NCBI GenBank assembly: GCA_963703125.1
Contig: OY969790.1
Coordinates: 2,575,832 to 2,639,831 of the forward strand
Length of the DNA: 64,000 bases
Source of the DNA: an uncultured Flavobacteriaceae bacterium
Lineage (GTDB): Bacteria > Bacteroidota > Bacteroidia > Flavobacteriales > Flavobacteriaceae
Direction of reading: 5' to 3'
Every line of letters begins with the position of its first letter. The stretch's first letter is position 1. Positions 47,421-64,000 of the stretch are shown here, in pieces. A program made the position numbers and the translations under genes. A model generated the notes under the pieces. It saw only the letters and a program-made list of their open reading frames with translations. It made no database searches and had not been told where the DNA came from.

Positions 47421-47496
47421 TAAAAAACTTCATTTCACAACATAAATTTTACAATTGTCATAATATTCCTACGTTTGTTGAATTAAAATTTAACAG

Positions 47497-48039
47497 ATGA
47501 AAGGTATTGTATTTACTGAATTTTTAGAAATGGTTGAGGGAACTTTTGGTCTTGAAACTGTTGATACCATTATTGAAAACTCAAATTTACCCTCCGAAGG
47601 TATTTATACTTCTGTAGGAACGTATGATTTCAATGAAATGGTAGCCTTAATCACTGCGCTTCATAATAAGACAAAAGTACCGGTAGATGATCTTATTTAC
47701 ACGTTCGGTCATTTTCTTTTCACCAGTCTTGCTAAGGCACATCCAGAAGTGATATCCAATTACTTATCTCCAATGAATCTCTTGTATTCTATAGAAGATC
47801 ATATTCATGTACATGTTAAAAAGTTATATCCAGATGCAGAGCTTCCAAGTTTTACCATTCTAGATAAAACGGATACATCCATATCCATGATCTATAAATC
47901 ATCCAGAGGACTTTATCGGCTGGCGCATGGTCTTATGGAGAAATGTTTTGAACAGTTCAACAAAACGGCCAAAGTTAGTTATGAACTCATAAAGCAAGAC
48001 GGCACTGAAGTTAAATTTGATATTGTCCAAAATGGATAG
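47497..48039 (+). CDS. H-NOX (heme-NO/O2-binding, HNOB) domain protein
   Basis: 180 aa with MKGIVFTEF at the N-terminus. DHIHVHVKKLYPDAELPSF aligns to the sGC-type proximal-His region. The YxSxR motif is present as YKSSR. Confidence 0.85.
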   Translation: MKGIVFTEFLEMVEGTFGLETVDTIIENSNLPSEGIYTSVGTYDFNEMVALITALHNKTKVPVDDLIYTFGHFLFTSLAKAHPEVISNYLSPMNLLYSIEDHIHVHVKKLYPDAELPSFTILDKTDTSISMIYKSSRGLYRLAHGLMEKCFEQFNKTAKVSYELIKQDGTEVKFDIVQNG

Positions 48040-50404
48040 TCAAGAGAAAGAAATTGAGTTATTAAAACGTGCCCTAACTCGCCAAAAAAAAGCAAGGATT
48101 GCGGCAGAGCAGATTCTAGAGAAAAAATCGAAGGAACTCTACGATGTTACACACCATTTAAAAGAGGCGAATGCCAAGCTAGAGAATCTATTGACCGAGA
48201 AGACTTCTGAACTAGATGGAGTGTTTATCAACATTATTGACCCTTATGTGGTGATGGACATGAGTTTTAATGTGGTTAACATGAACACTTCGGCAAAACA
48301 ATTTTTAGGCTATGACCATACGAAAGAGTGTGTTAACTTAACCAAAATGGTTCATGAGGATTTTGTGGAATATACCGCAGAATCAATGAAATCACTTTTA
48401 AAAGTCGGCGTACTTAATAATTACAGGGCCAAAATCAGGACTAAGGATCAAACCGTTAAATGGGTCGAAATAAATAGTAGTCTAATATATAATCAAGAAA
48501 GAAAGCCTATTGCCGCTCAAGGTATAATAAGGGATATAACGAAGGAAATGGAGATAAAGCAGTTGCTGTCTGAGCAAAAGCGACAACTGGATATTATCTT
48601 GGAGAATTCCCCCTTGGGAGTTGTTCTAATAGCTGAAGGTAAATTCATCAAGGTGAATACGGCTTTTATAGATCTAATAGGTTATGGTGAACCTGAATTA
48701 AAAAACCTTACTGTACATGAAATAACCTACCCCGAAGATAAGAATGTGACTAAAGACTTCTTAGCTAAGATGAAAGATGAGGAGATTGACAATTTCACCG
48801 TTACAAAAAGATACTTGCGTAGAGATGGCAGTATTCTATATGCAAGATTATTGGTCAGTGCCGTAAGAAATATTGATGGTGTTGATGATTATCAAGTTGC
48901 CATTATAGAGGATATTCGCAAGGAAATGGAGGCTGAAGAACGATTAAAGGCTTCTGAGAATAGACTTTCTACGCTTATCTTAAATCTACAAATGGGCGTG
49001 TTGTTAGAAGATGAAAACAGAAAAATACAATTGACCAATCAGATGTTCTGTGATCTCTTTCAAATACCTGCCACTCCAGCGCAAATGGTTGGGGCGGATT
49101 GCACTTCGTCTGCCGAGCAGTCAAAATCACAATTTAAAGACCCAGAGGGTTTTGTAAAGAGAATCGACACCATATTAACTAACAAAAAGACTGTCTTATC
49201 CGATGAGTTGGAAATGATAGATGGTAGGGTTTTAGAAAGGGATTATATCCCCATTTTTAACGAAGATATTTATAAAGGTCATCTTTGGTCCTATCAAGAT
49301 ATAACGCTTAAAAAAAATTATGAGGCTACATTAAGTGCCGAAAGAGAGAAGTATAGTAGTATCATCGCCAACATGAACCTTGGGTTATTAGAAGTCGATA
49401 ATAATGATACTATTCAATTAGTGAATCAAAGTTTCTGTGCCATGAGCGGTTTTTCTGAAATTGAACTTTTGGGAAAAAAGGCAGCGGATGTTCTTAGGGT
49501 TAAAGAGAAAGAGGTCATTAAATCAAATGAGGACAAACGATTAAAAGGTGAATCTGATTCTTATGAAGTGCAAATTTTGGATAAATCGGGTGAAATAAAA
49601 CATTGGCTTATAAGTGGCGCCCCCCGTGTGGATAAAAATAATAATGTTATTGGTTCCATTGGTATTCATTTGGATATTACCAAACAAAAGGTATTAGAAT
49701 TGCAAAAGGAACAATTGGTGCAAGAATTGGAAAACAGTAACAAAGGGCTGCAAGAATACGCACATATTGTTTCGCATGACCTTAAATCACCTTTAAGGAG
49801 TATTAGTGCATTATCTACTTGGTTGCAGGAAGACTATAAAGATATTTTAGATGAGACCGGAAACCAACATTTGCAAATGATGCAAGAAAAGGTAGCTTCA
49901 ATGGATAAATTGATCAGTGGTATTTTGGAATATTCCACAGCCAATAGTTCTAATTTGGATAATACAACGGTAGACTTAAATACGGTTATCGATACTATAA
50001 AAGAAACGATTTATATACCGGATCATGTTGAATTATCGGTTCCTCAAAAGTTACCTAATATTATTGCCGACAAAACCAAAATGCATCAGTTGTTTCAAAA
50101 TATACTTTCAAATGCCGTGGTACATATTGAAAATGAAAAAGGGCTGGTAGAAGTTTTGTTTTTGGATAATGCGGACCAATGGCAATTTACCATTGCCGAT
50201 AATGGGGTAGGAATTCCTGAAAAACATCATAAAAAAATATTCGAAATATTTCAATCTGTAGGTAATAATGAACGGTCAACGGGGATCGGATTATCAATAG
50301 TTAAAAAAATAGTGGATCGGTACAATGGTGAAGTTTGGGTTGAAAGTGAGGTGGGCAATGGTACGAAATTCCATTTTACCCTAAAGAAACAAGACCTAGC
50401 CTAA
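48017..50404 (+). CDS. Multi-PAS sensor histidine kinase (HisKA plus HATPase_c, no receiver domain)
   Basis: 795 aa. It has an N-terminal coiled coil, several PAS-like repeats, the H-box IVSHDLKSPLR and the G-box GIGLSIVKK. It overlaps the H-NOX gene by 23 nt. Confidence 0.9.
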   Translation: MILSKMDSQEKEIELLKRALTRQKKARIAAEQILEKKSKELYDVTHHLKEANAKLENLLTEKTSELDGVFINIIDPYVVMDMSFNVVNMNTSAKQFLGYDHTKECVNLTKMVHEDFVEYTAESMKSLLKVGVLNNYRAKIRTKDQTVKWVEINSSLIYNQERKPIAAQGIIRDITKEMEIKQLLSEQKRQLDIILENSPLGVVLIAEGKFIKVNTAFIDLIGYGEPELKNLTVHEITYPEDKNVTKDFLAKMKDEEIDNFTVTKRYLRRDGSILYARLLVSAVRNIDGVDDYQVAIIEDIRKEMEAEERLKASENRLSTLILNLQMGVLLEDENRKIQLTNQMFCDLFQIPATPAQMVGADCTSSAEQSKSQFKDPEGFVKRIDTILTNKKTVLSDELEMIDGRVLERDYIPIFNEDIYKGHLWSYQDITLKKNYEATLSAEREKYSSIIANMNLGLLEVDNNDTIQLVNQSFCAMSGFSEIELLGKKAADVLRVKEKEVIKSNEDKRLKGESDSYEVQILDKSGEIKHWLISGAPRVDKNNNVIGSIGIHLDITKQKVLELQKEQLVQELENSNKGLQEYAHIVSHDLKSPLRSISALSTWLQEDYKDILDETGNQHLQMMQEKVASMDKLISGILEYSTANSSNLDNTTVDLNTVIDTIKETIYIPDHVELSVPQKLPNIIADKTKMHQLFQNILSNAVVHIENEKGLVEVLFLDNADQWQFTIADNGVGIPEKHHKKIFEIFQSVGNNERSTGIGLSIVKKIVDRYNGEVWVESEVGNGTKFHFTLKKQDLA

Positions 50405-50411
50405 AAGTAAC

Positions 50412-51539
50412 ATGAAAATAGAGCAATCAATAAAAATAGTAAACGGGCCATTTGTATATGAAAATGAAAGAATACAACTTAATAATCCTTTGGTTCTAGT
50501 TTTTGGCGATCGTTTCATGTTGGAACAGGAAGAACTGCTTGCTGAGGTGAAATCCATATATCCTACCGGGCATCTGGTTTTCGGTAGCACTTCTGGTGAA
50601 ATCATTGGAGCTACTGTTTTAGATAATTCGTTGACCATGACTGCGATAGAGTTTGAAAAATCTCAATTTTTGGTCAAGAAAAAGAATGTTTCTGATTTTC
50701 AAAATAACGATTTTGAATTGGGGAAATCACTTTTAAGTGAATTTCCTAAAGAAAATCTGAAGAATATATTTTTAGTGTCAGAGGGTAGTTTTGTGAACGG
50801 TAGTTCTTTAATTTCAGGATTTAAGAACGGAAATCAAGAGGTTAATATTTCTGGTGGACTTTGTGGTGATGGGAATCGGTTTCAAAAGACCCTTTGTTCT
50901 TATAATGAACGACCAAAGGAAGGTGAAGTGGTAGCCATTGGTTTTTATGGTGATACCTTAGAAATCAGTAGTGCAAGTTATGGTGGTTGGTCAACCTTTG
51001 GCCCTGAACGTAGCGTTACTAAATCAAAAGGAAATATATTATTTGAATTGGATGGTAAGCCTGCGTTAGATCTCTACAAGGAGTATTTGGGAGAAAAGTC
51101 GAAAGAATTGCCAAAATCAGCATTACTGTATCCACTTAATGTCTGTGTTGATGACCAACAACCCATTGTACGTACCATATTGAATATTAGTGAAACACAG
51201 AATACAATGGTACTTGCTGGGGATATACCAGAAGGTTCCACAGTGCAATTGATGATGTCTACTGTCGATGATATTGCTGAAGGTGCCTCTATAGCTGCTA
51301 AATTGGCCATGGAAAATCGGGTTCATAAACCCGAATTAGCTATCTTAATTAGTTGCGTAGGAAGAAAACTGGTTATGGGGCAACGTACCGAAGAGGAGAT
51401 TGAAGAAGTAGTTTCCATTATTGGAGAAGATACTGTTGTTACCGGTTTCTATTCTTATGGGGAAATGGCACCATTTTCTGGTCAAGAATCTTGTAGATTG
51501 CATAACCAGACCATGACCTTAACCTTAATTAGCGAATAA
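50412..51539 (+). CDS. FIST-domain sensory protein
   Basis: 375 aa. The C-terminal GFYSYGEMAPF..LHNQTMTLTLISE is characteristic of FIST_C. Confidence 0.8.
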   Translation: MKIEQSIKIVNGPFVYENERIQLNNPLVLVFGDRFMLEQEELLAEVKSIYPTGHLVFGSTSGEIIGATVLDNSLTMTAIEFEKSQFLVKKKNVSDFQNNDFELGKSLLSEFPKENLKNIFLVSEGSFVNGSSLISGFKNGNQEVNISGGLCGDGNRFQKTLCSYNERPKEGEVVAIGFYGDTLEISSASYGGWSTFGPERSVTKSKGNILFELDGKPALDLYKEYLGEKSKELPKSALLYPLNVCVDDQQPIVRTILNISETQNTMVLAGDIPEGSTVQLMMSTVDDIAEGASIAAKLAMENRVHKPELAILISCVGRKLVMGQRTEEEIEEVVSIIGEDTVVTGFYSYGEMAPFSGQESCRLHNQTMTLTLISE

Positions 51540-52597
51540 TGCATTCTTTACTGAGCAGACAATTAAGGAAAAAATTACCGGAGCGTTTTAGGGACGACCC
51601 CGGGCTTCAGGATTTTTTGAAATCCGTAGATCAGTCCTATGAGGATTTTGATGATAAGCTTACCATGCTGCAAAGAGCCACTACCATAAGTTCTAAAGAA
51701 CTGTCTGAAGCTAATAAAGAATTGTCCAATGAAGCCGAAAGGCAAAAATTGGTTTTGCAATCATTAAGCGAAGCAATGGTCAGTCTTAATTTAAACTTGG
51801 GTATTGATCAAGAAAAAGATATTGAAATACTACAAAATATTAAGGTGGAGAAATTGGCGGTCCACATTAAAAACTTGGCCATTAAAATTTCAAAGATCAA
51901 TCAAGAAAAGACTGATTTACTTAATGATTTAGAAGCAAGAAACGAATCTTTAAGTAATTATATACAGATTGTTTCGCATGATTTAAAGTCTCCCTTAAGA
52001 AATATCAACACATTAATGAGTTGGATTCTTGAAGAGGAAAAGGACGGTTTTTCGTTCGAGAGTAAAAAGAACTGTGTGCTGGTAACTCAAAATCTTTCTA
52101 AAATGGAGCAGCTCATTAGTGGTATATTAGATCACGCCACCATTGGGGCGGCGCCTGAACATAGAAGTGAGGTTTCCATTGATGAACTGATGATCGAAGT
52201 TAAAAATAATCTTGATGTTCCTGAGAATGTCACCTTAAAATGGACAGAGCATATGCCGACCATAACTATCGAGAAAATTTGGTTGGAGAAGGTATTTTAC
52301 CATCTTATAAACAATGCCTTAACTGCGGTGAAAAATAGGAGTGAGGGTAAAGTTTATGTAGGTTATGAAGAGGATAATAGCTATTGGAAATTTTCAGTTT
52401 CCGATAATGGTATCGGTATAGCAAATCGTTACCATAAAAGTATATTTGAAATTTTTAAAAAGTTAGAAAATGATACTGCCTCTGCAGGGGTAGGTCTTGC
52501 TATTTCGAAGAAAATAGTAAATCTATACCAAGGAGACATTAGTCTTTCATCAAAGGAAGGTGAGGGTAGTACGTTCTTTTTTTCTCTAAAAAAATAA
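51539..52597 (+). CDS. Cytoplasmic histidine kinase (coiled coil plus HisKA plus HATPase_c)
   Basis: 352 aa with H-box IVSHDLKSPLR and G-box GVGLAISKK. Its start overlaps the FIST stop (TAATG). Confidence 0.85.
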   Translation: MHSLLSRQLRKKLPERFRDDPGLQDFLKSVDQSYEDFDDKLTMLQRATTISSKELSEANKELSNEAERQKLVLQSLSEAMVSLNLNLGIDQEKDIEILQNIKVEKLAVHIKNLAIKISKINQEKTDLLNDLEARNESLSNYIQIVSHDLKSPLRNINTLMSWILEEEKDGFSFESKKNCVLVTQNLSKMEQLISGILDHATIGAAPEHRSEVSIDELMIEVKNNLDVPENVTLKWTEHMPTITIEKIWLEKVFYHLINNALTAVKNRSEGKVYVGYEEDNSYWKFSVSDNGIGIANRYHKSIFEIFKKLENDTASAGVGLAISKKIVNLYQGDISLSSKEGEGSTFFFSLKK

Positions 52598-52599
52598 TT

Positions 52600-52920
52600 A
52601 TGAAGCACGAACCAAACATTTCATATATTATTGAACTTTCAGGAGATGACTCAGACTTTCAAGAAAAGTTCATCAACATTTTAAAGGAAGAATTCCCAGA
52701 AGAAAAAGCCGTTTACCTAAACGCTGTTCAGCAAAAGGATTTTACAAACGCGGTGGAAATAGTACATAAACTCAAACATAAATTCAATATTTTAAGCATG
52801 TATGATGCATACGCTTTAGCGGTCACATATGAATTGGAATTGAAAAATAAAGATCTTGGTAACGATAAGGAATTCATTATAGCTTTAAATGTGGTGGATT
52901 CATACTTAAAAACTATTTAG
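52600..52920 (+). CDS. HPt-like histidine phosphotransfer protein (tentative)
   Basis: 106 aa, predicted helical. VHKLKHKFNIL resembles the HPt HxLKG motif. Confidence 0.45.
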   Translation: MKHEPNISYIIELSGDDSDFQEKFINILKEEFPEEKAVYLNAVQQKDFTNAVEIVHKLKHKFNILSMYDAYALAVTYELELKNKDLGNDKEFIIALNVVDSYLKTI

Positions 52921-52922
52921 CA

Positions 52923-53630
52923 ATGAATTGTATAATTATAGACGATGAGACCGCAGCTAGAGCGGTTGTTAGTCATCTTTGTTCCCAAATCACGGAATTA
53001 GATGTAATCGAAGAATTTGACAATGCGATAGACGCCATTAAATTTCTGAACCAACAAGTGATTGATGTGGTGTTCCTGGACATTCATATGCCAGGATTTT
53101 CGGGAATCGATTTTGTTCAAACACTTAAAAACCCGCCCCATATTGTATTGACTACCTCGGATACGGAATTTGCTATCGAGGCATACGAATATGAATCCAT
53201 AGTTGATTATTTGGTAAAGCCAATTACTCTAAACCGTTTTGAGAAGGCAATTAAAAAAATAAGGAACGTAAACGAGAACAGTAAACACAAAGAAAATGTG
53301 GTTCATAAAACACCTTTGAACCAAGAGCTTTATATCAATATAGATCGTAGACTTATCAAATTGAAGTTTGACGAAATTCAATTGATTATGGCACAAGGTG
53401 ACTATATCGATATAACTACCGAGAGTAAAAAATATAGGGTTCATACAACATTGAAGAAAATCAAGGAAAAATTACCGGAAACTATTTTTCTTCAAATTCA
53501 TCGTTCATACATCATTAACTTCACAAAAATCATTGATATCGAGGATAATAGTGTTTTAATTGAAAAAAACGTTGTTCCCATAAGTCGTTCTAGTAGACCA
53601 GAATTAATGAGAAGACTTAATTTGGTATAA
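52923..53630 (+). CDS. LytTR-family response regulator (receiver plus LytTR DNA-binding domain)
   Basis: 235 aa with VVFLDIHMP and YLVKP in the receiver. The C-terminal LytTR pattern is IHRSYIIN..PISRS. Confidence 0.9.
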   Translation: MNCIIIDDETAARAVVSHLCSQITELDVIEEFDNAIDAIKFLNQQVIDVVFLDIHMPGFSGIDFVQTLKNPPHIVLTTSDTEFAIEAYEYESIVDYLVKPITLNRFEKAIKKIRNVNENSKHKENVVHKTPLNQELYINIDRRLIKLKFDEIQLIMAQGDYIDITTESKKYRVHTTLKKIKEKLPETIFLQIHRSYIINFTKIIDIEDNSVLIEKNVVPISRSSRPELMRRLNLV

Positions 53631-53826
53631 TTTTTTCTAAGAGAAATATCTGTCAAAAAATTCAATAGTATTCTCCCTTTGATCTTAGGCCTAGATTCAA
53701 TGAACATGATACACTGAATACTGTAATATTAAAAGGTTTAAGTAATTAAGGCTGATTTTGATTTTGCCCTCTTAGAGGTAAAATTAATTACATTAAAAAT
53801 CAATTGGACTGTTGCAATTATCCAAT

Positions 53827-55899
53827 TTATTGATTTTCAATTCTTGTTTTCATCTTAGTATAGTAAATAGGCTTGTCTAGAAATAGCCATTTCAGTTTGC
53901 ACCCAACTTCAGTAAATTCAAAACCTGCTGCGGTAGCCGATGCAATGTTGCTATACTTTCCATATAGATTGGCACTAAATCTTTTTGAGAATTGATGCTG
54001 TACTGCTGCTTCAGCCCTGAAAATTGTTGTGTTGGGATCTTCTTCGACCTTTTGGAATCCGGTTGCCGCGCTGATCATATAAGTTGTCTTTTCAGAAAAA
54101 TTTCCACGTAGATCAGTAAAGATTTCAACGGCCTGATACTGTTCAGGACTAAAGTAAATAGTGGGTACTTGATTTTTAAACGTAATATATTGATAGTTTA
54201 CGCCCATTTTTAAAGCAGGTTTTTGCAATAGGGTGTAGTATAAAGAAGTAAATAGTAGGTTTCGGGTATTCGAATCACTTTGTTGGGTATGCATTAACTG
54301 TGTGTACCAACCTAAATTAATGTTAGTGCCCAAATTGTAATTTAATCCGTAATGGTGTTGTATAATTTCACGTTCAATAAGTTCCGCATTAAAGTTTTGA
54401 ACTTCTCGCTGATAGCCTAAAGTTAGATTCTGCAATTTTAAGGGCTCTAGCATTAATCTGGCCTCTAAGACCGGTTGGGTATAGGCATCGTCCATAAATC
54501 TGGAATTGTTAAAACCAATAACTGTTTTTAAAATGGTTTTGGGAAAAAGTTTGTACCGTAGACCGGCCAAGACTACATGAGAATTGGCTTTGTTATTGGT
54601 AACCGAATTCTCGGTTGTCCTATAAAAATAGGATACAGTTGTTCTGAATTTAGTGGAAAAGGGTACTTCAACTGTAGTATTGGTGTAAAATGCCACATTA
54701 TTGCCGTTATCAAAAGTATAGGCCGCATGTTCCTCAATACTAGGGGTATGCATTAGATTTAGTTTTTCTATAAAACCTAAAGCGTCCTTTTGATTTTCGT
54801 AAAAGGCGAGGGTTTTGTAAGCCATCTCGTAGGCTGGCAGTATTCTATCAGCTGCAAAAAGAGCGTTTGCCTTACCCAAATTCCCGTCAAAAGACGTACT
54901 ATCCTTTTTTAAAATAGCATCATAACTTTCTAAACTGCTTTTTACATCTCCGGTATATAGTCCCAAGGTTGCTTTTAATCCAAAAACCCAACTGGGAATT
55001 GGTTTATGATTTTCTAAACTATCAATTTGTTGCTTAGCTTGTTTAAATTTTCTGTTCCATATCATCGCTTGTATGTACCTGTCATAAGTACGTTCCTTGA
55101 GTTCCGTATCTGTTATTTTTGAAACTTTGATTTTAGCACGTTCAGCTATTTTAAGCGCTTCTTTGTCCTGTTCTCCAATATGTTCTGCTAATGCTATGCC
55201 GTTTAAGGCTGTAATTGAATCCTTTGGTGAGGTAGCATATCTTTGATACATCACCTTTGCACTATCAACCTGTTTTGTTATTAGATATAGGTTGGCTAGA
55301 TTGAGCAATGCATCTTTGTCTTCAGGAAAATCGATAAAGATTTTATTCAATAGTTCTTCTCCTTGGGTATAGTTCTGTTTATTTACAAACGTATTTGCGT
55401 AGCCCAAATTCATATATTTTCTAGAGGTAAGGGCACTAGTATTTCCAGGTTTGAGCAACAAAGCATTTTCGACCATTTCAAGCGCTGCTCTATACTCCTT
55501 TAAATTACTAAGTGTATTCGCATAGCCAAGAACGGCACCAAATTGATTTGGATTTTCCTTTACCAGTTCTGCATAAAGTGGTCTGGCCTTTTCATATTCC
55601 TCTGCCCACAAAAAAGACTCATTATAATTTATTAGTATTTCGAAGTCGTTGGGGTATTCTTTTAGCAACTGAGCAAATAAGTCAGTTGCCTTTTTTGGTT
55701 CTCCACTTAATCCTACTGCGCGCGCATAGCATAATTGGGCTGTTTTATTGTTAGGGTCGGATTTTAGATATGCTTCAAAAAATTCTTCGGCTTCTGGAAA
55801 ATTTCCCTTCTCCAATAAACCAAAGCCTTTGGTCATATCGGTTTGGGCCCAAATGATAGTAGTTGAAAATAGCAGGATTTGTAAGAGAAGTGTACGCAT
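53827..55899 (-). CDS. Outer-membrane TPR-repeat plus C-terminal beta-barrel protein (PgaA/BcsC/PelB-like export scaffold, tentative)
   Basis: 690 aa with a signal peptide. The N-terminal roughly 380 aa are TPR-like helical repeats. The C-terminal roughly 300 aa show an alternating beta-strand pattern ending in an aromatic-rich terminus. Confidence 0.55.
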   Translation of the reverse strand: MRTLLLQILLFSTTIIWAQTDMTKGFGLLEKGNFPEAEEFFEAYLKSDPNNKTAQLCYARAVGLSGEPKKATDLFAQLLKEYPNDFEILINYNESFLWAEEYEKARPLYAELVKENPNQFGAVLGYANTLSNLKEYRAALEMVENALLLKPGNTSALTSRKYMNLGYANTFVNKQNYTQGEELLNKIFIDFPEDKDALLNLANLYLITKQVDSAKVMYQRYATSPKDSITALNGIALAEHIGEQDKEALKIAERAKIKVSKITDTELKERTYDRYIQAMIWNRKFKQAKQQIDSLENHKPIPSWVFGLKATLGLYTGDVKSSLESYDAILKKDSTSFDGNLGKANALFAADRILPAYEMAYKTLAFYENQKDALGFIEKLNLMHTPSIEEHAAYTFDNGNNVAFYTNTTVEVPFSTKFRTTVSYFYRTTENSVTNNKANSHVVLAGLRYKLFPKTILKTVIGFNNSRFMDDAYTQPVLEARLMLEPLKLQNLTLGYQREVQNFNAELIEREIIQHHYGLNYNLGTNINLGWYTQLMHTQQSDSNTRNLLFTSLYYTLLQKPALKMGVNYQYITFKNQVPTIYFSPEQYQAVEIFTDLRGNFSEKTTYMISAATGFQKVEEDPNTTIFRAEAAVQHQFSKRFSANLYGKYSNIASATAAGFEFTEVGCKLKWLFLDKPIYYTKMKTRIENQ

Positions 55900-56015
55900 T
55901 ATTTCAGGTAAGATTAATACTACAAAACTTAACGTTCGTATTTGTTTTTTATTTCTAATTTCTTGAAGTATAAAGGTAGATAGTCTTCTTTCTAGCCGGA
56001 AGTAGGTTAATTGTT

Positions 56016-56048
56016 ATTCAACTATGCATAATTGCCATCGAACTATTT
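56016..56048 (+). promoter_or_regulatory. Phased repeats ATTCAACTATGC / ATCGAACTATTT (21-nt period) related to the 46929 repeats
   Basis: The first repeat matches ATTCGACTATAC at 10/12 positions. The AACTAT cores at 56020 and 56041 are 21 nt apart. The pair lies 79-111 nt upstream of the ATG at 56127. Confidence 0.35.
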
Positions 56049-56126
56049 TGTGTTGTTATGGTTGGCTAAGTGAGAGATATTTGCTTCATCAATAAAAGAA
56101 AACTTAACCTATTTAAAACATTTATT

Positions 56127-56429
56127 ATGGCATTACAAATTTCAGAAGCAAGAGGAGTATTTTCAGTATTTGGAGAATTGAACAGTTATACTGTAGCAAT
56201 TCTTACAAGACACATGAGTAATTATATTAAAAAGGACCAACGTGTCATTTTAAATTTAGAAAGGGTAAAAAAAATAGATGTTTGCGCGGCCTATACCATT
56301 AAGAAATTATTTATGGATGCAGTAGGTAAGAGCAGTATTTTTTCAATAGTGGCCATGGAAAATAAACAAGTGATGGATGTTTTTAATGAAACACAAATTA
56401 CATATATCGTAAGTAATGATCGGTACTAG
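56127..56429 (+). CDS. STAS-domain protein (anti-sigma-factor-antagonist-like)
   Basis: The likely start is MALQISEARGVFSVFGEL, and the layout LNLERVKKIDVCAAYTIKKL is STAS-like. No partner kinase or phosphatase is present in the window. Confidence 0.5.
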   Translation: MALQISEARGVFSVFGELNSYTVAILTRHMSNYIKKDQRVILNLERVKKIDVCAAYTIKKLFMDAVGKSSIFSIVAMENKQVMDVFNETQITYIVSNDRY

Positions 56430-56748
56430 ATATGTTTAGATCATAGTTTTCCCCCAGCACGTTGTTTTGGGTTGTCTACTTTATTGATTAGGTAGCTATT
56501 CATACAAAGTGCTTTTTTTATGGGATAGCAGATACTACAGTGGTATCTACTTTCCATTTTAATAGTAAAGTAGCACTTCCAGATTTATCGATAGTATTAT
56601 TTAAGATTTTTTAGGTAGGTAAAAGGCTTATCGTCAAAGGAATACCATTCGTCTACAGTAAATATCTATCCATCCTAAACTTCTCATTTTAAAGTATAGA
56701 TCATCGCAAATTTGCTTCAGAAATAAACTTAACCTAAAGTAAAAAAAG

Positions 56749-57987
56749 ATGAAACTAGCAATTGTTACAGCATTCCCACCGAGTAAAGTTACCTTGACCG
56801 AATACGGATATTATTTGGTAAAACATTTTCGATTACAGAAAGAAGTGACCGAAATTATTTTGATTACCGATAAAACACCAGAAGAAAAAGATCTTAATTT
56901 TAATGAGGAAGGGTGTAAGATTACCGTGAAAGAATGCTGGAATTTTAATGACTATTCAAATATTTTTAAAATCAGCAAGGTTTTAACGGACTCAAAACCA
57001 GATGCCGTATTGTTCAATCTTCAATTTTTAAAATTCGGAGATAAAAAAATACCTGCAGCGTTAGGTTTGCTACTGCCTTTTGTTTGCAAATTCAAGGGAA
57101 TTCCAACGATCTCTTTACTGCACAATATTTTAGAGCAAGTAGATTTGGATAATGCTGGTTTTACCTCGAACAAGGTATTACAGAAAGTATATAATTTTAT
57201 CGGTACCACGTTAACAAAATTTGTATTGGCATCAGATGTATTGGCGGTGACCATGAGCCAATATAAAAATATACTTGACAAAAAATACAAAGCAAAGAAT
57301 GTTGCCATAATTCCTCATGGCGCTTTTGACACGCCACCGGAGCCCGATTATACATTAAAACAAGGACCCAAACAAATCATGGCATTTGGCAAGTTTGGAA
57401 CTTATAAAAGAGTAGAAGTTTTAATCGAAGCTGTAGAATTGATTAGAAAAAAAACGAATGAAAATCTTGAAATTGTTATTGCGGGTACAGATAGCCCTAA
57501 TACACCGGGTTATTTACAGAACATAAAAGAAAAGTATGCACACGTAGAACAGTTACGTTTTACGGGGTATGTGGCAGAAGAAGATGTACCCGTTATTTTT
57601 AATGAAAGTGCAATGGTCATTTTCCCCTATACTTCCACAACAGGCAGTTCTGGAGTTTTACACCAAGCGGGTAGTTACGGTAAAGCAGTGGTATTGCCAG
57701 ATTTAGGAGATTTGAGTGTCTTGTTAAAAGAAGAAGGCTATAGAGGTGAATTTTTTGAACCTGAAAGACCGGAATCTTTGGCAAAAGCTATCGAAAAGAT
57801 ATTACAGAATGACTCATATAGGGTCAACCTGGGTAAGGTTAATTATAGTGCGGCTTGTTCGCTACCCATGTCAAAAATTACCCAAATGTATATCGATTAT
57901 TTTGAAGTTATTAAAATGGTCAAGTCCAAAGGATTTAGTTTGGATGTGAATAAAATTGATAAGAAACTACTAAGTCAAAGAGTTTAG
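56749..57987 (+). CDS. Glycosyltransferase family 4 (copy 1 of a paralog pair)
   Basis: 412 aa with FPYTSTTGSSGVLHQAGSYGKAVVLPD. By eye it is about 70 percent identical to the 60671-61900 product. Confidence 0.8.
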   Translation: MKLAIVTAFPPSKVTLTEYGYYLVKHFRLQKEVTEIILITDKTPEEKDLNFNEEGCKITVKECWNFNDYSNIFKISKVLTDSKPDAVLFNLQFLKFGDKKIPAALGLLLPFVCKFKGIPTISLLHNILEQVDLDNAGFTSNKVLQKVYNFIGTTLTKFVLASDVLAVTMSQYKNILDKKYKAKNVAIIPHGAFDTPPEPDYTLKQGPKQIMAFGKFGTYKRVEVLIEAVELIRKKTNENLEIVIAGTDSPNTPGYLQNIKEKYAHVEQLRFTGYVAEEDVPVIFNESAMVIFPYTSTTGSSGVLHQAGSYGKAVVLPDLGDLSVLLKEEGYRGEFFEPERPESLAKAIEKILQNDSYRVNLGKVNYSAACSLPMSKITQMYIDYFEVIKMVKSKGFSLDVNKIDKKLLSQRV

Positions 57988-58004
57988 GTTAGGTGAAGTG
58001 GAAA

Positions 58005-58037
58005 GGGAAGCGACCTGGTTAGTCGCTCCCTTTTTTT
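58005..58037 (+). terminator. Intrinsic terminator
   Basis: GGGAAGCGAC pairs with GTCGCTCCC (one bulge), followed by T7 at 58031-58037. Confidence 0.7.
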
Positions 58038-58190
58038 ACATCTGAACTATTAGCAATAATGATTTTGAATCATTGAATTCAAACCCGATTTTAAAATCGG
58101 AAATCTTTTTCACAATTAAACACCTTAATTATAATATATATAAAATGCTTACGTTTTACGTAAGTTATATCCTACTATAATTTTTTTACT

Positions 58191-59330
58191 ATGAAAATAC
58201 TAACTATAGACGATCAGCAATTAATTCTCTTATCCGTAGAGAAACGTTTAATAGAACTAGGTTACACCGTCAAGACCGCGAATAGTGGTCAAAAAGGGAT
58301 AGAATTGTTCAAGTCATTTGAACCTGACCTTGTTCTTGTAGATATCAATATGCCAGATATGTCTGGTTTGGATGTGGTAAAGCATATTAAAAAAGAGAGT
58401 CAGAGAAATACTCCTGTTCTCATAATGTCCGGTAATACAGAGGAAAATATTATCATGAACGGTTTTACGCTGGGTATCGATGATTACATGAAAAAACCGG
58501 TGAGTTTAGATGAAATGGCCGCTCGTATCAAAAGGCTTATCGGTGCTCCTGAAGTTTCGAACAGCTCTAAGGGTTCATTAGATGCCAGAATGTTGCAGAA
58601 GAATTGTGTAGGTGTAGTTATACCTTGCTATAATGAAGAAGAACGGTTATTGGGAAAAGAATTTAAGGATTTCGCCCACAAAAACCTAGGCTACCATTTA
58701 TGTTTTGTAAACGATGGTAGTACCGATAGAACTCTTGAAATTTTGAGGGAATTAGAAAAAGGAAGCGAGAGTAATATTAGCATTTATAATTGCGAAAAAA
58801 ATGGCGGGAAGGCAGAAGCTGTTCGACAAGGTATGTTGCATTTAGCGCAGGATCCACAACTTGACTACATTGGTTTCTTGGATGCCGATTTGTCGACCGA
58901 TTTTAGGGATTTTGATGATTTAGTGGAAACCTTGGATACCTCCAATTTTAAGATTGTTAGTGGTTCTAGAATGAGCCGCATGGGTGCTGATATTACCAAG
59001 GAATCTGCACGTAAATTGATTAGTATGTCCATCAATCTTATTATCAGGACCATCTTAAAAATGCCTTTTAACGATACGCAATGTGGTGCCAAAGTGATGG
59101 ATAAATCATTGATTCCGCTACTTTTTAATAAACCGTTTATCACCAAATGGTTGTTCGATGTTGAAATGTTCATGAGAATGCGCAAATATTATGGTAAAAC
59201 GAAAGCCAAAGAATTGATTTGCGAACAGCCACTTAAAAGATGGATACATGCAGATGGTTCCAAGTTGTCCATGAAAGACTCCGTGAAAATTGTTGGCCAA
59301 TTGGCCAAGATAGCAATTTCATATCGCTAG
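58191..59330 (+). CDS. Response-regulator receiver fused to a GT2 glycosyltransferase (polyprenyl-phosphate hexosyltransferase-like)
   Basis: 379 aa. The receiver shows IDDQ, LVLVDINMPDMSG and YMKKP. The GT2 part shows VVIPCYNEE, FVNDGSTD, FLDADL and NDTQCGAK. Confidence 0.85.
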   Translation: MKILTIDDQQLILLSVEKRLIELGYTVKTANSGQKGIELFKSFEPDLVLVDINMPDMSGLDVVKHIKKESQRNTPVLIMSGNTEENIIMNGFTLGIDDYMKKPVSLDEMAARIKRLIGAPEVSNSSKGSLDARMLQKNCVGVVIPCYNEEERLLGKEFKDFAHKNLGYHLCFVNDGSTDRTLEILRELEKGSESNISIYNCEKNGGKAEAVRQGMLHLAQDPQLDYIGFLDADLSTDFRDFDDLVETLDTSNFKIVSGSRMSRMGADITKESARKLISMSINLIIRTILKMPFNDTQCGAKVMDKSLIPLLFNKPFITKWLFDVEMFMRMRKYYGKTKAKELICEQPLKRWIHADGSKLSMKDSVKIVGQLAKIAISYR

Positions 59331-59364
59331 AACTATTTAAATAATCCCCTAAGTAAACTTTAAG

Positions 59365-60645
59365 ATGACTGCAATACAATTAGCCGTTAAAAGAATTTCG
59401 CCTCAACAATTATTCATGGGGAGTGCCTTTTTGGTAAATGGCGGCAATTATCTTTACAATTTGTTGTTGGGTAGAATGTTAGGCCCTGAAGCCTTTGCAG
59501 ATGCTGCCCTTCTGGTGACTTTATTGCTCGTATTATCCTTTATTGGGATGACCTTTCAATTGGCGACCACAAAATTTGCCGTTCTTTTTGACGAAGAACG
59601 ATGGACCAATTTTAAGAATACGATGTATCGTTATGCGTTAGTTTTTGGATTGGTTACCGGTACTTTAATCTTGTTTGGCGCTAATTACTTACAGGTCCTT
59701 TTTCGTACGGAGAATCACTGGATGTTCGTGGTATTTGCCATTTTCATGCCACTTTACTTTGTAATGAGTGTAAACCGAGGCAGGTTTCAAGGAAGGCAGG
59801 AGTTCGGAAAATTGGCCACTACCTACCAAACCGAAATGTGGAGCAGATTGTTGCTCACCTTTATATTCCTTTGGATATTACCTTTTCAATCTGCCATTTT
59901 AATCGCATTGGGCATTGGCGTTTCCTTTGTCTTTGGACTCATTCCTTCTGATCTGAAAGAAGTGAATATTCTATCGAAGGCAAAAATGGATAAGGTCGAT
60001 TTTAAGCAAGTATGGATATTTATAGGACTTACCGCTGGTTATGAATTAACCCAAATTATCATAAACAATAGTGATATTCTTCTGGTAAAACATTATTTCA
60101 ATGATACCGATGCCGGACTTTATTCTTCCCTAGCACTTATTGGTAGGGTAGTCTACTTTGTGGCTTGGATGTTCGTTATGCTGTTAATGCCTACCGTAAT
60201 TCAAAAACGAAAGGATGGCGAGGCCACTGCGCCCGTACTTTTTAAATATGTTTTGTTTATTGGAATATTGTCTGCATGTATCGTAGGTGTTTGTTTTTTA
60301 ATGCCAGAATTCATCATTCAGGTAATGTTCGGTGATGCATATTTATCTGTTGCCGGTTTACTTTGGCAGTATGCTTTGGCAACTTCCTTGTTCGCCATAT
60401 CCAACATATTCGCCTATTATTTTTTATCACTTGACCATTACGCTCCGGTTATTCTATCAGGTATTTTGGGATTGTCCCAGGTGCTTTTAATTGTGTTCTT
60501 CCACGATAGTCTTGCCGCTGTAGTACAGGTTCAAATTTTGGCAATGATTCTATTATTGGTAGCCCAACTGGTTTTCTTTTTTATCAAGAATAAAAAAGTT
60601 AGAATAGAGAAAAATACCAACCAATTAACCACCAGTTTGGATTAA
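59365..60645 (+). CDS. MOP-superfamily oligosaccharide flippase-like membrane protein
   Basis: 426 aa with about 12 TM segments. The N-terminal NGGNYLYNLLLGRMLGP is typical of Wzx/polysaccharide biosynthesis proteins. Confidence 0.65.
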   Translation: MTAIQLAVKRISPQQLFMGSAFLVNGGNYLYNLLLGRMLGPEAFADAALLVTLLLVLSFIGMTFQLATTKFAVLFDEERWTNFKNTMYRYALVFGLVTGTLILFGANYLQVLFRTENHWMFVVFAIFMPLYFVMSVNRGRFQGRQEFGKLATTYQTEMWSRLLLTFIFLWILPFQSAILIALGIGVSFVFGLIPSDLKEVNILSKAKMDKVDFKQVWIFIGLTAGYELTQIIINNSDILLVKHYFNDTDAGLYSSLALIGRVVYFVAWMFVMLLMPTVIQKRKDGEATAPVLFKYVLFIGILSACIVGVCFLMPEFIIQVMFGDAYLSVAGLLWQYALATSLFAISNIFAYYFLSLDHYAPVILSGILGLSQVLLIVFFHDSLAAVVQVQILAMILLLVAQLVFFFIKNKKVRIEKNTNQLTTSLD

Positions 60646-60670
60646 AAGCTAAACTAAAATTATAAACATT

Positions 60671-61900
60671 ATGAGATTAGCAATTGTTACCGCCTACCCG
60701 CCAAGTAAAGTTACTTTAGTAGAGTACGGTTATTATTTAGTGAAACATTTTAGATTGCAGGAGCGCGTAACGGAATTGATCTTGATTACCGACCGTACCG
60801 AAGCTTCCAAAGATCTTGATTTTGAAGAAGAAGGGTGTAAGATTACCATAGAAGAATGTTGGAGTTTCAATAGTTACAACAATATATTGAGTATAAACAA
60901 AGCGCTATCTAAAACCAAACCGGATGCCGTGCTGTTCAATCTCCAATTTTTAAAATTTGGGGATAAAAAAGTACCCGCTGCTTTAGGGTTGTTGCTGCCT
61001 TATGTTTGCAAACTGAAAGGTATACCAACAATTTCCCTGCTACACAATATTCTAGAGAAAGTAGATTTGGACAATGCCGGTTTTACCAAAAATCCTATCC
61101 TACAAAAAATATACAATCTCATCGGAACCACGTTGACACGTTTTGTTTTGGCTTCTGATGTACTTGCGGTTACCATTAGTAAATATGTCACCATATTAGA
61201 AGATAAGTACAAAGTAAGAAACGTTGCCCTTGTTCCCCATGGTTCTTTTGAAACGCCACCAGAGCCTTCTTATATTTTACCTAAAGGACCAAAACAAGTG
61301 ATGGCCTTTGGAAAATTTGGAACGTATAAAAAAATAGAGATCCTTATTGAGGCGGTAGAATTGATTCGCGCTAGAAGTACTGAGGATATTGAAATTGTCA
61401 TTGCAGGAACAGATAGTCCCAATACACCTGGATATTTAGATTCCATAAAAGAAAAATACAGTCATGTTCAACAAATTAGGTTTACAGGTTATGTGGCCGA
61501 ACAAGATGTGCCCAAGCTTTTTGGTGAAAGTGCTGTTACTGTTTTTCCTTATACCTCTACAACAGGAAGTTCTGGGGTGCTACACCAAGCGGGTAGTTAT
61601 GGTAACGCTGTTGTATTACCAGATTTAGGTGATTTGAGCACACTGGTAAAGGAAGAAGGATATGTAGGCGAATTTTTTGATGCCTATGATGCATCCTCCT
61701 TGGCCAATGCCATAGAAAGAATATTGGTGAACGATGCGCATAGGATAGAAATAGGTAAAACTAATTTCAAAGCCGCCTGTTCATTGCCGATGTCTGAAAT
61801 AACGAAGATGTATCTTGATTACTTTGAGGCCATAAAGAAGTCAAAGGAACAAGGGTTCAATTTAGATGTTTCCAATAAAAGTTCAGAATTGGTACACTAA
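60671..61900 (+). CDS. Glycosyltransferase family 4 (copy 2 of the paralog pair)
   Basis: 409 aa, collinear with the 56749-57987 product. Confidence 0.8.
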   Translation: MRLAIVTAYPPSKVTLVEYGYYLVKHFRLQERVTELILITDRTEASKDLDFEEEGCKITIEECWSFNSYNNILSINKALSKTKPDAVLFNLQFLKFGDKKVPAALGLLLPYVCKLKGIPTISLLHNILEKVDLDNAGFTKNPILQKIYNLIGTTLTRFVLASDVLAVTISKYVTILEDKYKVRNVALVPHGSFETPPEPSYILPKGPKQVMAFGKFGTYKKIEILIEAVELIRARSTEDIEIVIAGTDSPNTPGYLDSIKEKYSHVQQIRFTGYVAEQDVPKLFGESAVTVFPYTSTTGSSGVLHQAGSYGNAVVLPDLGDLSTLVKEEGYVGEFFDAYDASSLANAIERILVNDAHRIEIGKTNFKAACSLPMSEITKMYLDYFEAIKKSKEQGFNLDVSNKSSELVH

Positions 61901-61923
61901 AAATTATTTTATAAATGTTTAAA

Positions 61924-61954
61924 AAGGAGTCTGCTTAATAGGGACTTCTTTTTT
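61924..61954. terminator. Candidate bidirectional terminator between convergent genes
   Basis: AAGGAGTC (61924-61931) pairs with GACTTCTT (61943-61950) with one G-T pair. A T run follows. Confidence 0.4.
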
Positions 61955-63479
61955 ATTCTACGATAATTTCAAAAACTGGTTTCTTTTTGCCTTCTGTGTT
62001 AATCAAGCCGAAGTAACGCTGAGGATTTTTACGCCACGGTAATCTACCCACTACACTGTTGGGTACTTCATCAAAATCATAAAGTGTCCATAAAACAAAG
62101 GGAATACGTTCCGCATTTAATGTAGCCTGCATTTCAGTATAATATTGAGTCTGGTCTTCAAGTGAACCTAAATATCCATTCCACAGACCATCATAAGAGG
62201 AATAGCCATACTCCTGTAAGACGATGGGTTTGTTGACCACTTTATTTTTTAGTTTTTTATAGGCCGTTAAAAAATCAACTGGTTTCCGATAATAATGGAA
62301 AGAAACAAAATCAATTTCATCAGATAAATTCTCTGCAGCTTCAGGAGTAGACCAACCAATGGTTATGGGAGTTTCAGCATCCCATTTTTGTATTTCAGTA
62401 ATCATTTGAGACAGCCAAGCCAGAACATTTTCTTTTCCCCTTGTTTCAAAATCAAGGTCGGGCTCATTTTTAATATCCCAGGCGATTAGCGCTTGGTGGT
62501 CTTTAAATTCATCAACTATAAATTGGGCATGTCTATGGGTCAAGGTCCAATCTGGTATGGAATAATCACCGTAAAAATCGAACAAGGTTAGAATCACATC
62601 CAAATTAGCGGCCGAGGCAATGTCCATTACTTTCTGCAGTTTTTCTATTTTTTCATTTTCAATATCCGCTTGACCGAAATCTTCATACGGTACAAAAATC
62701 CGTACGGTATTAAGTCCCATTTCATTGATTATTTTAAAGTCGGATGAAATAATGCTGTCATTGAATTTTTTGCCATACATGTCCCAAGGGGAATCCTTAG
62801 GGTAATAGTTGATGCCCTTTATATTTGAAATTTTACGGTTTAGTTCTGAAATTAGGGTTTGATTGTTCGCAATTGGTATGGAATCATTTTCTATCTCCAC
62901 CATATGACGGATGCGCCAAAAACCATCCTCCAATAGCATCATTACTTTATAGCTACGTTCAAATGCCTTTCTTAGAATAGCTTTCTCTCCATAAAAAAAT
63001 TCTTCATATCCTTTTACGTTTTTATCGGTGAACGTGATGATTTTTCCATCCGCACTATAAAAATCCAATTGGGGGTGATGCTCTAGGGTAGTGGTTTTTA
63101 TGGAGTTGTTGTTTTCTTTATTAAAATCGAGAATCCGAAATAACTTCACCCTTGCACTATCGGTATAATAATCGGCTACACCATAATGATTATTGGTGCT
63201 TAGGGCATCGTTTTTAACGAACCAAGATTTTAAATAATCCCGCTCTATTTCTCCCAAGGTTTGTTTTTCCATAGGTCGTCCTTCATTTTCAAAAGGATAC
63301 CATGTGACTTCAGGTCTGTAGCTTGAAGAAAGTTTGGCGGGCAAATGAAGCATAGTACTGCGATCTGCACCGGTATTTAAATAGGAGAAGATTGAACTTA
63401 TGCCATAGATGACCAGAGCGTTGAGTACGACAAAGGTGATGATTAAGAAAATTCGATAAAGCGTTCTATTCGTTTTCAT
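61953..63479 (-). CDS. Membrane-anchored GH5-like (clan GH-A) glycoside hydrolase
   Basis: 508 aa with an N-terminal TM segment. WDIKNEPD (NEP acid/base) and VLQEYGYSS (nucleophile Glu) fit a cellulase-family (beta/alpha)8 fold. Confidence 0.6.
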   Translation of the reverse strand: MKTNRTLYRIFLIITFVVLNALVIYGISSIFSYLNTGADRSTMLHLPAKLSSSYRPEVTWYPFENEGRPMEKQTLGEIERDYLKSWFVKNDALSTNNHYGVADYYTDSARVKLFRILDFNKENNNSIKTTTLEHHPQLDFYSADGKIITFTDKNVKGYEEFFYGEKAILRKAFERSYKVMMLLEDGFWRIRHMVEIENDSIPIANNQTLISELNRKISNIKGINYYPKDSPWDMYGKKFNDSIISSDFKIINEMGLNTVRIFVPYEDFGQADIENEKIEKLQKVMDIASAANLDVILTLFDFYGDYSIPDWTLTHRHAQFIVDEFKDHQALIAWDIKNEPDLDFETRGKENVLAWLSQMITEIQKWDAETPITIGWSTPEAAENLSDEIDFVSFHYYRKPVDFLTAYKKLKNKVVNKPIVLQEYGYSSYDGLWNGYLGSLEDQTQYYTEMQATLNAERIPFVLWTLYDFDEVPNSVVGRLPWRKNPQRYFGLINTEGKKKPVFEIIVE

Positions 63480-64000
63480 GGTATGGTTATGATCATTTTT
63501 TTTGATAAACCTGCAACATTAATTTCTATGCTATAATTTCCAGGTTCAAAATACTCCCGAGTCAGCTTAAAATTACCTTGTCCTAATCTTGATGTTGTAC
63601 GGTCTTCAAGAATCAAAGAATTTTTTGCATCAAAAACCTTTATTTCGATAGGAATACCATCTGGTGCGGTTTGTTCCATAAAGCTTTTAATTTCTTGCAC
63701 TTCTACAGTACTGGACTCTTTATTGAAATTGGTATGATAATCTTTGATCGCAACCCTAAAGGACAAATGTATGATAGAGCTTTCTGCCGTACCGGTGACA
63801 TAGGCTTTTACCTCCCAATCATCTGGTTTGTACGGATGTAAAAATCTGGCTTTTGCGATTCCGTTCAATGTTGTTCCCACTGCTGTGAGTTGTATTCCTT
63901 CGGAATTTGTGGCGACAAACGAAACTAGTGTACCGTCACTGACAATGTTCCCGAATTCATCTTTTATGCTATCGGTGGAAAACAAAATAACCTGATTACC
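63476..64000 (-). CDS. Beta-rich (Ig-like fold?) protein; C-terminal part only, with the N-terminus outside the window
   Basis: The frame stays open to the window edge (..GNQVILFSTDS..). Its stop overlaps the downstream start (ATGA), so it is likely co-transcribed with the GH5-like gene. Confidence 0.35.
   Translation of the reverse strand, partial: GNQVILFSTDSIKDEFGNIVSDGTLVSFVATNSEGIQLTAVGTTLNGIAKARFLHPYKPDDWEVKAYVTGTAESSIIHLSFRVAIKDYHTNFNKESSTVEVQEIKSFMEQTAPDGIPIEIKVFDAKNSLILEDRTTSRLGQGNFKLTREYFEPGNYSIEINVAGLSKKMIITIP

Follow-up and report, generated by a model that had tools for sequence, protein, structure and literature searches.

A conserved flavobacterial gene cassette that combines a receiver-fused GT2, a candidate GT-C protein and a BcsC/PgaA/PelB-type porin

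We examined a stretch of DNA of 64,000 nucleotides (hereafter, the window) from an uncultured Flavobacteriaceae bacterium (assembly GCA_963703125.1, contig OY969790.1, positions 2,575,832 to 2,639,831), at the end of which lies a group of polysaccharide-type genes. Open reading frame (ORF) listing together with Pfam and NCBIfam scans placed eight genes there, as the original prediction had listed them: an outer-membrane exporter, a STAS protein, two family GT4 glycosyltransferases (GTs), a GT2 fused to a receiver domain (REC-GT2), a MOP-superfamily membrane protein, a membrane-anchored hydrolase and part of an Ig-like lipoprotein (Table 1). The same prediction described the locus as compact; however, the window end (base 64000) cuts it, and the operon that contains the hydrolase runs on beyond this point in the source contig and in L001, a contig of a metagenome-assembled genome that is 96% identical to the window at the DNA level. 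In both contigs, a 1028-amino-acid (aa) membrane protein is encoded first in this operon, the Ig-like lipoprotein follows and the hydrolase is the last gene; a second REC-GT2 gene lies beyond the 1028-aa gene on the opposite strand. The part that lies in the window amounts to about three quarters of a conserved, approximately 14-kb cassette.

The conservation of this neighborhood was examined with a profile of the hydrolase, relatives of which occur at at least 544 places among species-representative genomes. Eighty loci were fetched, and 71 of them had full 10-kb flanks. They cover Maribacter, Zobellia, Cellulophaga, Ulvibacterium, Tenacibaculum, Zunongwangia, Arenibacter, Algibacter and other genera, plus one Sunxiuqinia. 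The REC-GT2, hydrolase, GT4 and MOP genes were present in all 71 full loci, and the genes for the 1028-aa protein, the lipoprotein and the exporter in 70 each. The usual order was REC-GT2 on the minus strand; the 1028-aa protein, lipoprotein and hydrolase on the plus strand; GT4, MOP and, where present, STAS on the minus strand; and the exporter on the plus strand, often followed by LytTR, Hpt and the remainder of a sensory operon. The co-conservation of the seven cassette genes is far beyond chance. A gathering of unrelated envelope genes beside a sensory operon is accordingly very improbable: the loci differ in the order and strand of the genes, many do without STAS and some have no sensory operon next to the cassette, but the seven genes stand together in 70 or 71 of the 71 loci across many genera and do so again in probable Chloroflexota-type loci (see below), and the flanks hold no other conserved gene family.

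As no further conserved gene family was found in the 10-kb flanks of the 71 loci, the cassette is without a phosphoglycosyltransferase (PGT), Wzy, Wzc/Wza, a GtrA-type flippase and nucleotide-sugar genes. The original prediction had noted that an initiating PGT, Wzy, Wza/Wzc and a processive multi-transmembrane GT2 synthase were missing from the window, and we found the same for complete loci with their 10-kb flanks, in the 71 loci and in a further 27 distant ones. The wider impression that the locus has no membrane polymerase or transferase is partly an edge effect, since the 1028-aa protein, a candidate member of the GT-C clan, lies just outside.

Table 1. Genes of the cassette, the adjacent phosphorelay operon and the separate Wzx/Wzy-type locus in the window
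Feature	Position	Strand	Evidence or remark
TPR + BCSC_C/PgaA-like exporter, 690 aa	53827-55899	-	Pfam, NCBIfam, AF2 (AlphaFold2), Foldseek
STAS, single-domain, 100 aa from ATG 56127; ORF opens at GTG 56070	56070/56127-56429	+	Pfam STAS, E 7e-8
GT4 copy a, cytoplasmic	56749-57987	+	Pfam Glycos_transf_1, Glyco_trans_1_4
REC-GT2, 379 aa	58191-59330	+	Pfam Response_reg + Glycos_transf_2
MOP/PST-superfamily multi-pass membrane protein, Wzx-like flippase candidate	59365-60645	+	Pfam Polysacc_synt_3, E 1.7e-10
GT4 copy b	60671-61900	+	Pfam
Clan GH-A hydrolase, 508 aa, predicted membrane-anchored, periplasmic	61953-63479	-	Pfam Glyco_hydro_2_C
Ig-like (Big_1) lipoprotein, C-terminal 174 residues of ~410 aa	63476-64000	-	Frame open to window end
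Phosphorelay operon: REC, H-NOX, PAS histidine kinase, FIST, histidine kinase, Hpt, LytTR response regulator	47019-53630	+	Pfam
WecA/MraY-type PGT of separate Wzx/Wzy-type locus	7535-9043		Sole PGT in window
DegT aminotransferase of separate Wzx/Wzy-type locus	15013-16137		
Wzx flippase of separate Wzx/Wzy-type locus	16137-17621		
Asparagine-synthase-like gene of separate Wzx/Wzy-type locus	23018-24898		
Wzc-like GNVR + ATPase protein of separate Wzx/Wzy-type locus	30206-32599		

The exporter matched Pfam TPR families and BCSC_C (24.1 bits; cut-off, 23.5) and, in part, the PgaA model TIGR03939, and a signal peptide was present. An AF2 model built with 40 homologues had a mean predicted local distance difference test score (pLDDT) of 88.4 and a predicted template modeling score (pTM) of 0.75. 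It contained approximately 18 TPR-type helices in residues 20-383 and 16 beta strands in residues 387-671. When the model was compared with the PDB using Foldseek, Escherichia coli BcsC was the top match (9b8a, E 2e-13), and PelB of the PelBC exporter (9h80_M, TM-score 0.67 on the target) and the PgaA barrel (4y25, TM-score 0.79, root-mean-square deviation 3.9 Å over 303 columns) were also found. The beta-barrel that had been proposed for this protein is thus present in the model, which presents a TPR array joined to a 16-stranded barrel with the fold of BcsC/PgaA/PelB-type export porins. The cognate inner-membrane synthases of such porins (BcsA, PgaC and PelDEFG) were found neither in the window nor in the 10-kb flanks of the 71 loci. 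The original description of a polysaccharide-type locus with such an exporter and an accessory hydrolase is supported, and the locus is coherent and conserved.

The enzyme type of REC-GT2 had been overlooked in the original prediction. When the receiver was removed, the best PDB matches of the GT2 domain were GtrB sll0501 (7e-9), ArnC (1e-8) and DPMS (9e-7), and BLASTP against E. coli ArnC gave an E of 7e-12. The nearest NCBIfam models were ArnC, PpgS, PgfS and AglJ, all under their cut-offs, and similarity to PgaC was confined to the generic N-terminal GT-A part. GtrB, ArnC, DPMS, PpgS, PgfS and AglJ all load a sugar onto polyprenyl phosphate for a GT-C enzyme across the membrane; the GT2 domain, a soluble GT-A domain with DxD-type motifs, is of this polyprenyl-phosphate sugar synthase type and is a plausible initiating or donor-making enzyme. 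Among 92 REC-GT2 sequences, the NDG, LDAD and TQCGAK motifs of the GT2 domain were invariant or nearly so, and the receiver residues D7, D8, D51, S80 and K102 were invariant in all 92. Since all five key residues are kept, the receiver should be phosphorylatable. With this D-D-D-S-K set intact, the receiver fused to GT2 probably gates polymer output through its phosphorylation, at the level of the enzyme.

The REC-GT2 inside the window was 83% identical to the internal copy of Maribacter. The REC-GT2 gene that usually lies divergently upstream of the GT-C gene has decayed in the window lineage: the source contig retains 206 aa, and L001 (4663-5589) has an ORF of 308 aa that is 35% identical over 250 residues. 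Furthermore, an ORF of 160-178 aa resembling the GT2 part was observed just upstream of REC-GT2 in many low-GC loci (L047, L048, L060, L070, L125, L137, L140, L143, L149, L153, L154 and L163).

The two GT4 proteins of the window, GT4a and GT4b, were 73% identical to each other and matched only generic GT4 models in Pfam and NCBIfam; GT4a has no transmembrane helix. Most genera of the Flavobacteriaceae loci have a single GT4. GT4b is the ancestral GT4 and the partner of MOP, and the pair of GT4a and REC-GT2 in the window is a lineage-specific duplication; several Maribacter species have a related gene order, GT4-MOP-RECGT2-GT4-MOP. A GT4 gene adjoins MOP in all 71 Flavobacteriaceae loci, and MOP stands beside a GT4 gene in distant loci too. 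The MOP protein showed about 10 hydrophobic segments. Polysacc_synt_3 was its sole family match, with no NCBIfam match and none to PelG at E 0.01, and nothing was obtained from the PDB sequence search. A terminator-like hairpin followed by a T-run lies 3' of GT4a (58009-58027), which suggests that GT4a is transcribed separately from REC-GT2-MOP-GT4b. An Rfam scan of 53000-64000 detected no regulatory RNA, and a sigma-70 promoter scan, which is ill-suited to Bacteroidota, was not above shuffles.

The 1028-aa protein, annotated as a hypothetical or membrane protein, is the most conserved member of the gene set (73-97% identity across genera). It consists of a multi-transmembrane N-terminal half, a very conserved loop domain (residues 400-545), two further transmembrane helices and a beta-rich C-terminal half. 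PTPS_related (PF10131) was detected in 32 of 42 orthologues (best E 8e-5, below the cut-off). A profile search of 1.84 billion representatives yielded approximately 1000 related clusters, many of them stand-alone N-modules of 550-600 aa. Among these stand-alone relatives, PTPS_related was found in 9 of 27 (best E 8e-10) and PMT_2 in two, the relative P0440 scoring 34.4 bits and so exceeding the cut-off of 26.1. Pfam places the two families in its GT-C clan, CL0111 (PMC7801869). In the low-confidence AF2 model, the transmembrane part gave STT3 chains as the best Foldseek matches (E 5e-4 to 1e-2, TM-scores 0.2-0.33), and the C-terminal part gave matches to NTF2-like and beta-sandwich domains. 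The catalytic acidic residue of GT-C enzymes sits after the first transmembrane helix, and the 1028-aa protein has Asp32 (at least 90% conserved) and an invariant His36 just after this helix. Membership of the 1028-aa protein in the GT-C clan is thus moderately supported.

The lipoprotein gene always lies directly downstream of the GT-C gene, and the full-length homologue in L002 carries a lipobox and a Big_1 domain. In the source contig, this gene is represented by two genes (134 and 267 aa) in different frames, and elsewhere by one ORF, of 413 aa in L001 (8763-10004) and 404-430 aa in other genomes; the split could be a frameshift or an assembly error. The hydrolase has one N-terminal transmembrane helix (residues 10-28), an extra N-terminal domain and a clan GH-A TIM barrel (GH5/GH2-like), in which N338-E339-P340 (NEP) and E423 (QEYG) are invariant. 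Its homologues also match Pfam Cellulase (GH5), and weak PDB matches to GH2 and GH5 mannanases were obtained.

STAS was detected in about 34 of the 71 Flavobacteriaceae loci, and elsewhere the intergenic gap was too small for a STAS gene. STAS was considered as a core part of the flavobacterial cassette and rejected, about half of the loci being without it. In the STAS proteins of the Flavobacteriaceae, the phospho-serine motif DS[SA]G is no longer present; that of the window reads IDVCA (DVCA at the site), versus DS[SA]G in relatives that carry a kinase and a phosphatase. No RsbW-type kinase or PP2C/SpoIIE phosphatase was found in the Flavobacteriaceae loci, whereas all partner-switching parts are present in high-GC relatives.

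The original prediction had linked the locus to the neighboring H-NOX/FIST relay. The window H-NOX shows a YxSxR motif and candidate proximal histidines when read by eye. Of 65 Flavobacteriaceae loci, 42 have LytTR/Hpt genes 3' of the porin gene. In distant loci, H-NOX and kinase genes lie beside the cassette in six (L084, L089, L097, L105, L133 and L144; G+C 0.59-0.73) and FIST in three (L094, L102 and L166). The link to H-NOX/FIST therefore recurs in several unrelated lineages but is not obligatory: the association stood, and a fixed adjacency did not. The neighboring phosphorelay is probably the controller of the cassette and is put forward as a candidate.

Distant versions of the cassette were obtained from context look-ups and from a metagenome scan with a divergent profile, which gave 86 further loci with a G+C content of 0.29 to 0.75. 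They were annotated with hidden Markov models (HMMs) made from the Flavobacteriaceae genes and the homologues of locus L085, and the 27 loci with wide flanks were counted. The lipoprotein and the hydrolase were present in all 27, GT2 in 24, GT4 in 23, MOP in 22 and a receiver in 25. The barrel was found in 10 of 11 low-GC loci versus none of the 16 with a G+C content of at least 0.40. The named high-GC members are Caldilineaceae, Anaerolineae and Dehalococcoidia; accordingly, the high-GC contigs are probably Chloroflexota. Homologues in these probable Chloroflexota-type loci were 24-45% identical, and a full-length comparison of GT4b with the GT4 of the high-GC locus L085 gave 42% identity. 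The GT2 of high-GC loci has no receiver; these loci carry instead STAS, a SpoIIE-type phosphatase (PP2C), an RsbW-like kinase, a second STAS and a free receiver, as in L085, L095, L119 and L123. This STAS partner-switching set probably does the gating job of the receiver in these relatives. In Dehalococcoidia-type contigs, minimal operons of MOP, GT4 and a GT-C N-module were observed, and one Dehalococcoidia operon (L083) reads MOP-GT4-(N-module)-Wzy_C.

Several higher-GC loci (L095, L097, L103, L105, L114-L117, L121 and L133) have a short hydrolase homologue of approximately 190-230 aa, in which the HMM matched the N-terminal part only. In addition, L114-L117, L121 and L123 contain a PIG-V-type GT-C and an extra 605-aa protein to which no Pfam family could be assigned. 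Five loci have an additional gene for a PIG-V-type GT-C, and a bifunctional mannose-1-phosphate guanylyltransferase/mannose-6-phosphate isomerase (ManC) is encoded directly after MOP in L124, L129, L132 and L134. The sugar of the cassette may be mannose, the hints being weak: ManC after MOP, PIG-V-type GT-C and the faint similarity of the hydrolase to GH5 mannanases.

Elsewhere in the window, a separate classical Wzx/Wzy-type polysaccharide locus occupies 7535-34566. Such a locus was considered as the supplier of the missing parts and rejected, the cassette being conserved regardless of that context. Upstream of the sensory operon, the minus strand at 43951-46283 encodes a TRAP-transporter solute-binding protein (DctP) as well as a GFO/IDH/MocA oxidoreductase, and an 84-aa ORF at 46455-46709 had no Pfam family match.

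These findings can be read together as a cassette that makes and exports an envelope polysaccharide via lipid-linked intermediates, in a GT-C-dependent and phospho-controlled manner, and we judge the chances of this to be about even. REC-GT2 would act at the cytoplasmic face and transfer a sugar from a nucleotide sugar to polyprenyl phosphate; as the cassette has no PGT, a monophosphate rather than a diphosphate link is probable. GT4 would extend the lipid-linked sugar or build a primer, and MOP would flip the lipid-linked intermediate. In the periplasm, the 1028-aa GT-C protein would transfer or polymerize the sugars, as its family, conservation and gene pairing suggest, and its NTF2-like and beta-sandwich C-terminal domains, with the Ig-like lipoprotein, would handle the chain. 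The membrane-anchored GH-A hydrolase would trim or release the polymer, and the TPR and 16-strand barrel protein, whose modeled fold fits this role, would carry it over the outer membrane. Receiver phosphorylation by the H-NOX/FIST relay via Hpt would gate the GT2 step, and LytTR would act on transcription.

Several observations weigh against this reading. The assignment of the 1028-aa protein to the GT-C clan is indirect: its AF2 model was poor (pLDDT 58.5), the alignment being shallow (73-97% identity); PDB sequence, family-profile and broader N-module-profile searches gave no meaningful match; and hhalign of the N-module profile against E. coli ArnT, an insensitive comparison with a single-sequence template, gave nothing. 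No transmembrane helix was found in REC-GT2 (379 aa), so that the C-terminal anchor helices of GtrB/ArnC are missing. The ManC and PIG-V hints of mannose are confined to non-Bacteroidota subclades. Going down from 64000, L001 stays colinear with the window as far as 53824 (L001 19656), where it diverges; since this breakpoint falls directly after the porin stop codon, the sensory operon is not adjacent in L001. We know of no secreted exopolysaccharide that is made by a GT-C polymerase and exported through a BcsC-type porin. Finally, the high-GC relatives have no porin, and most Chloroflexota have been reported to be without an outer membrane; these relatives may make a wall-bound glycan.

The absence of the porin from high-GC loci also bears on a different reading, in which GT2, GT4 and MOP make and flip a short lipid-linked glycan and the GT-C protein moves it onto a protein, lipid or wall polymer in the manner of archaeal AglJ/AglB or bacterial PgfS/PgfM, with the Ig-like lipoprotein as acceptor or partner. 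The resemblance of GT2 to AglJ and PgfS and the constant position of the lipoprotein gene after the GT-C gene are consistent with such glycoconjugate formation, as are the STT3 oligosaccharyltransferase chains among the fold matches, although the latter were obtained with a low-confidence model. A porin of the BcsC/PgaA/PelB class in 70 of the 71 Bacteroidota loci and a constant endo-type GH-A hydrolase, as in polymer-secreting systems, argue for secretion instead, and we consider glycoconjugate formation quite unlikely.

A second alternative arises from comparison with Pel (PelA-G) of Pseudomonas aeruginosa. Both systems have a soluble GT4 and a MOP/PST-type 12-transmembrane protein, no processive GT2 synthase, a periplasmic hydrolase, a TPR and 16-strand barrel protein and post-translational control by a signaling domain, which is probable for the cassette. 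Since GT4, MOP, TPR-barrel and hydrolase are thus also the layout of Pel, GT4 could be the polymerase, which is a further point against polymerization by the GT-C protein. GT4 and MOP would then polymerize as PelF/PelG do, the hydrolase and the TPR-barrel would act like the PelA hydrolase domain and PelB, and REC-GT2 and the GT-C protein would merely add a periplasmic side sugar, as in the Gtr, Arn and CsbB/YfhO systems. GT4 and MOP are indeed always adjacent and were duplicated as one unit, the barrel matches PelB as well as BcsC and PgaA, and pairs of GT2 and GT-C classically modify (PMC13390465). On the other hand, MOP gave no match to the PelG family at E 0.01, and PelD, PelE, PelC and a deacetylase were not found in or near the loci. 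The cassette differs further in its polyprenyl-phosphate-type GT2, its GT-C protein, its Ig-like lipoprotein and a probable control by REC/STAS, not by cyclic di-GMP (c-di-GMP). No other component is as conserved and constant as the GT-C protein, and it persists in the minimal MOP-GT4-GT-C operons, which is unusual for an optional decorator. A Pel-like mode of synthesis, with GT2 and GT-C as decorators, therefore seems unlikely to us.

If the GT-C-dependent export of a polysaccharide is retained as the working model, the cassette can be set beside the other systems that share its parts. In the three-component glycosylation systems (GtrB/GtrA/GtrC, ArnC/ArnEF/ArnT, CsbB/GtcA/YfhO and PpgS/Rv3779), a GtrB/ArnC/DPMS-type GT2 stands beside a GT-C-clan protein, as REC-GT2 does beside the candidate GT-C protein. 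However, these systems use a small GtrA- or ArnEF-type flippase where the cassette has MOP, and they modify existing polymers, whereas the cassette has a soluble GT2 with a receiver and, in addition, GT4, the hydrolase and the outer-membrane porin. Wzx/Wzy systems share the MOP flippase and, in the favored model, the periplasmic polymerization of lipid-linked units; PGT, Wzz/Wzc and Wza are missing from the cassette, and the Flavobacteriaceae loci have no Wzy_C polymerase. BcsABZC and PgaABCD share the TPR and 16-strand barrel exporter, and the accessory hydrolase is comparable with BcsZ, but the cassette has neither a membrane-embedded processive GT2 synthase nor a PilZ or c-di-GMP module.

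With regard to control, STAS-based regulation of polysaccharide synthesis occurs in Vibrio fischeri (SypA/SypE). STAS-based phospho-control of a polysaccharide glycosyltransferase has a precedent in Anabaena All4160/HenR (PMC13555669). As in these systems, STAS lies in a polysaccharide locus, and distant relatives of the cassette carry STAS, an RsbW-like kinase, SpoIIE and REC; in contrast, the window STAS is without phospho-serine, kinase and phosphatase, and the receiver is fused to GT2. The receiver-GT2 fusion and the STAS sets of the relatives provide a simple system in which phospho-control of matrix production at the enzyme level can be examined, and both may be a direct output of H-NOX signaling in algae-associated flavobacteria.

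The assembly of mycobacterial lipomannan and arabinan involves the GT4 enzymes PimA/PimB, the GT2 Ppm1, the GT-C enzymes MptA/MptB and the Emb/Aft proteins. The cassette would share with it cytoplasmic GT4 steps, a polyprenyl-phosphate-sugar synthase of the GT2 type, periplasmic growth by GT-C and, by weak hints, mannose; the 1028-aa protein resembles Emb proteins in combining a multi-transmembrane core with large periplasmic beta-rich domains. The two differ in that no sequence-level family match connects them, their taxonomy and regulation are unlike, and the mycobacterial product is lipid-anchored and is not exported through a porin. If the GT-C protein is the polymerase, periplasmic GT-C polymerization, as in mycobacterial walls, would extend to polymers that marine Bacteroidota and probable Chloroflexota secrete. 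The cassette might even represent a further general secretion route, in which a signal-gated GT2 starts on polyprenyl monophosphate, GT4 and MOP follow, Emb-like GT-C polymerization and a BcsC-type porin complete the export, and a nitric oxide (NO)/H-NOX phosphorelay switches the first enzyme directly; this proposal is possible but rather doubtful.

In our searches of the literature, we found neither the cassette nor REC-GT2 enzymes described, nor any connection between H-NOX and glycosyltransferases in Flavobacteriia, and the cassette members carry only hypothetical or generic annotation. There is a real chance that the cassette is a distinct pathway class. Bacterial exopolysaccharides are usually assigned to four routes, namely the Wzx/Wzy, ABC transporter, synthase and extracellular sucrase routes. 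All parts of the cassette belong to known superfamilies; their combination, which is fixed and widely conserved, mixes parts of three of these four routes, fits none of them and matches no established pathway.

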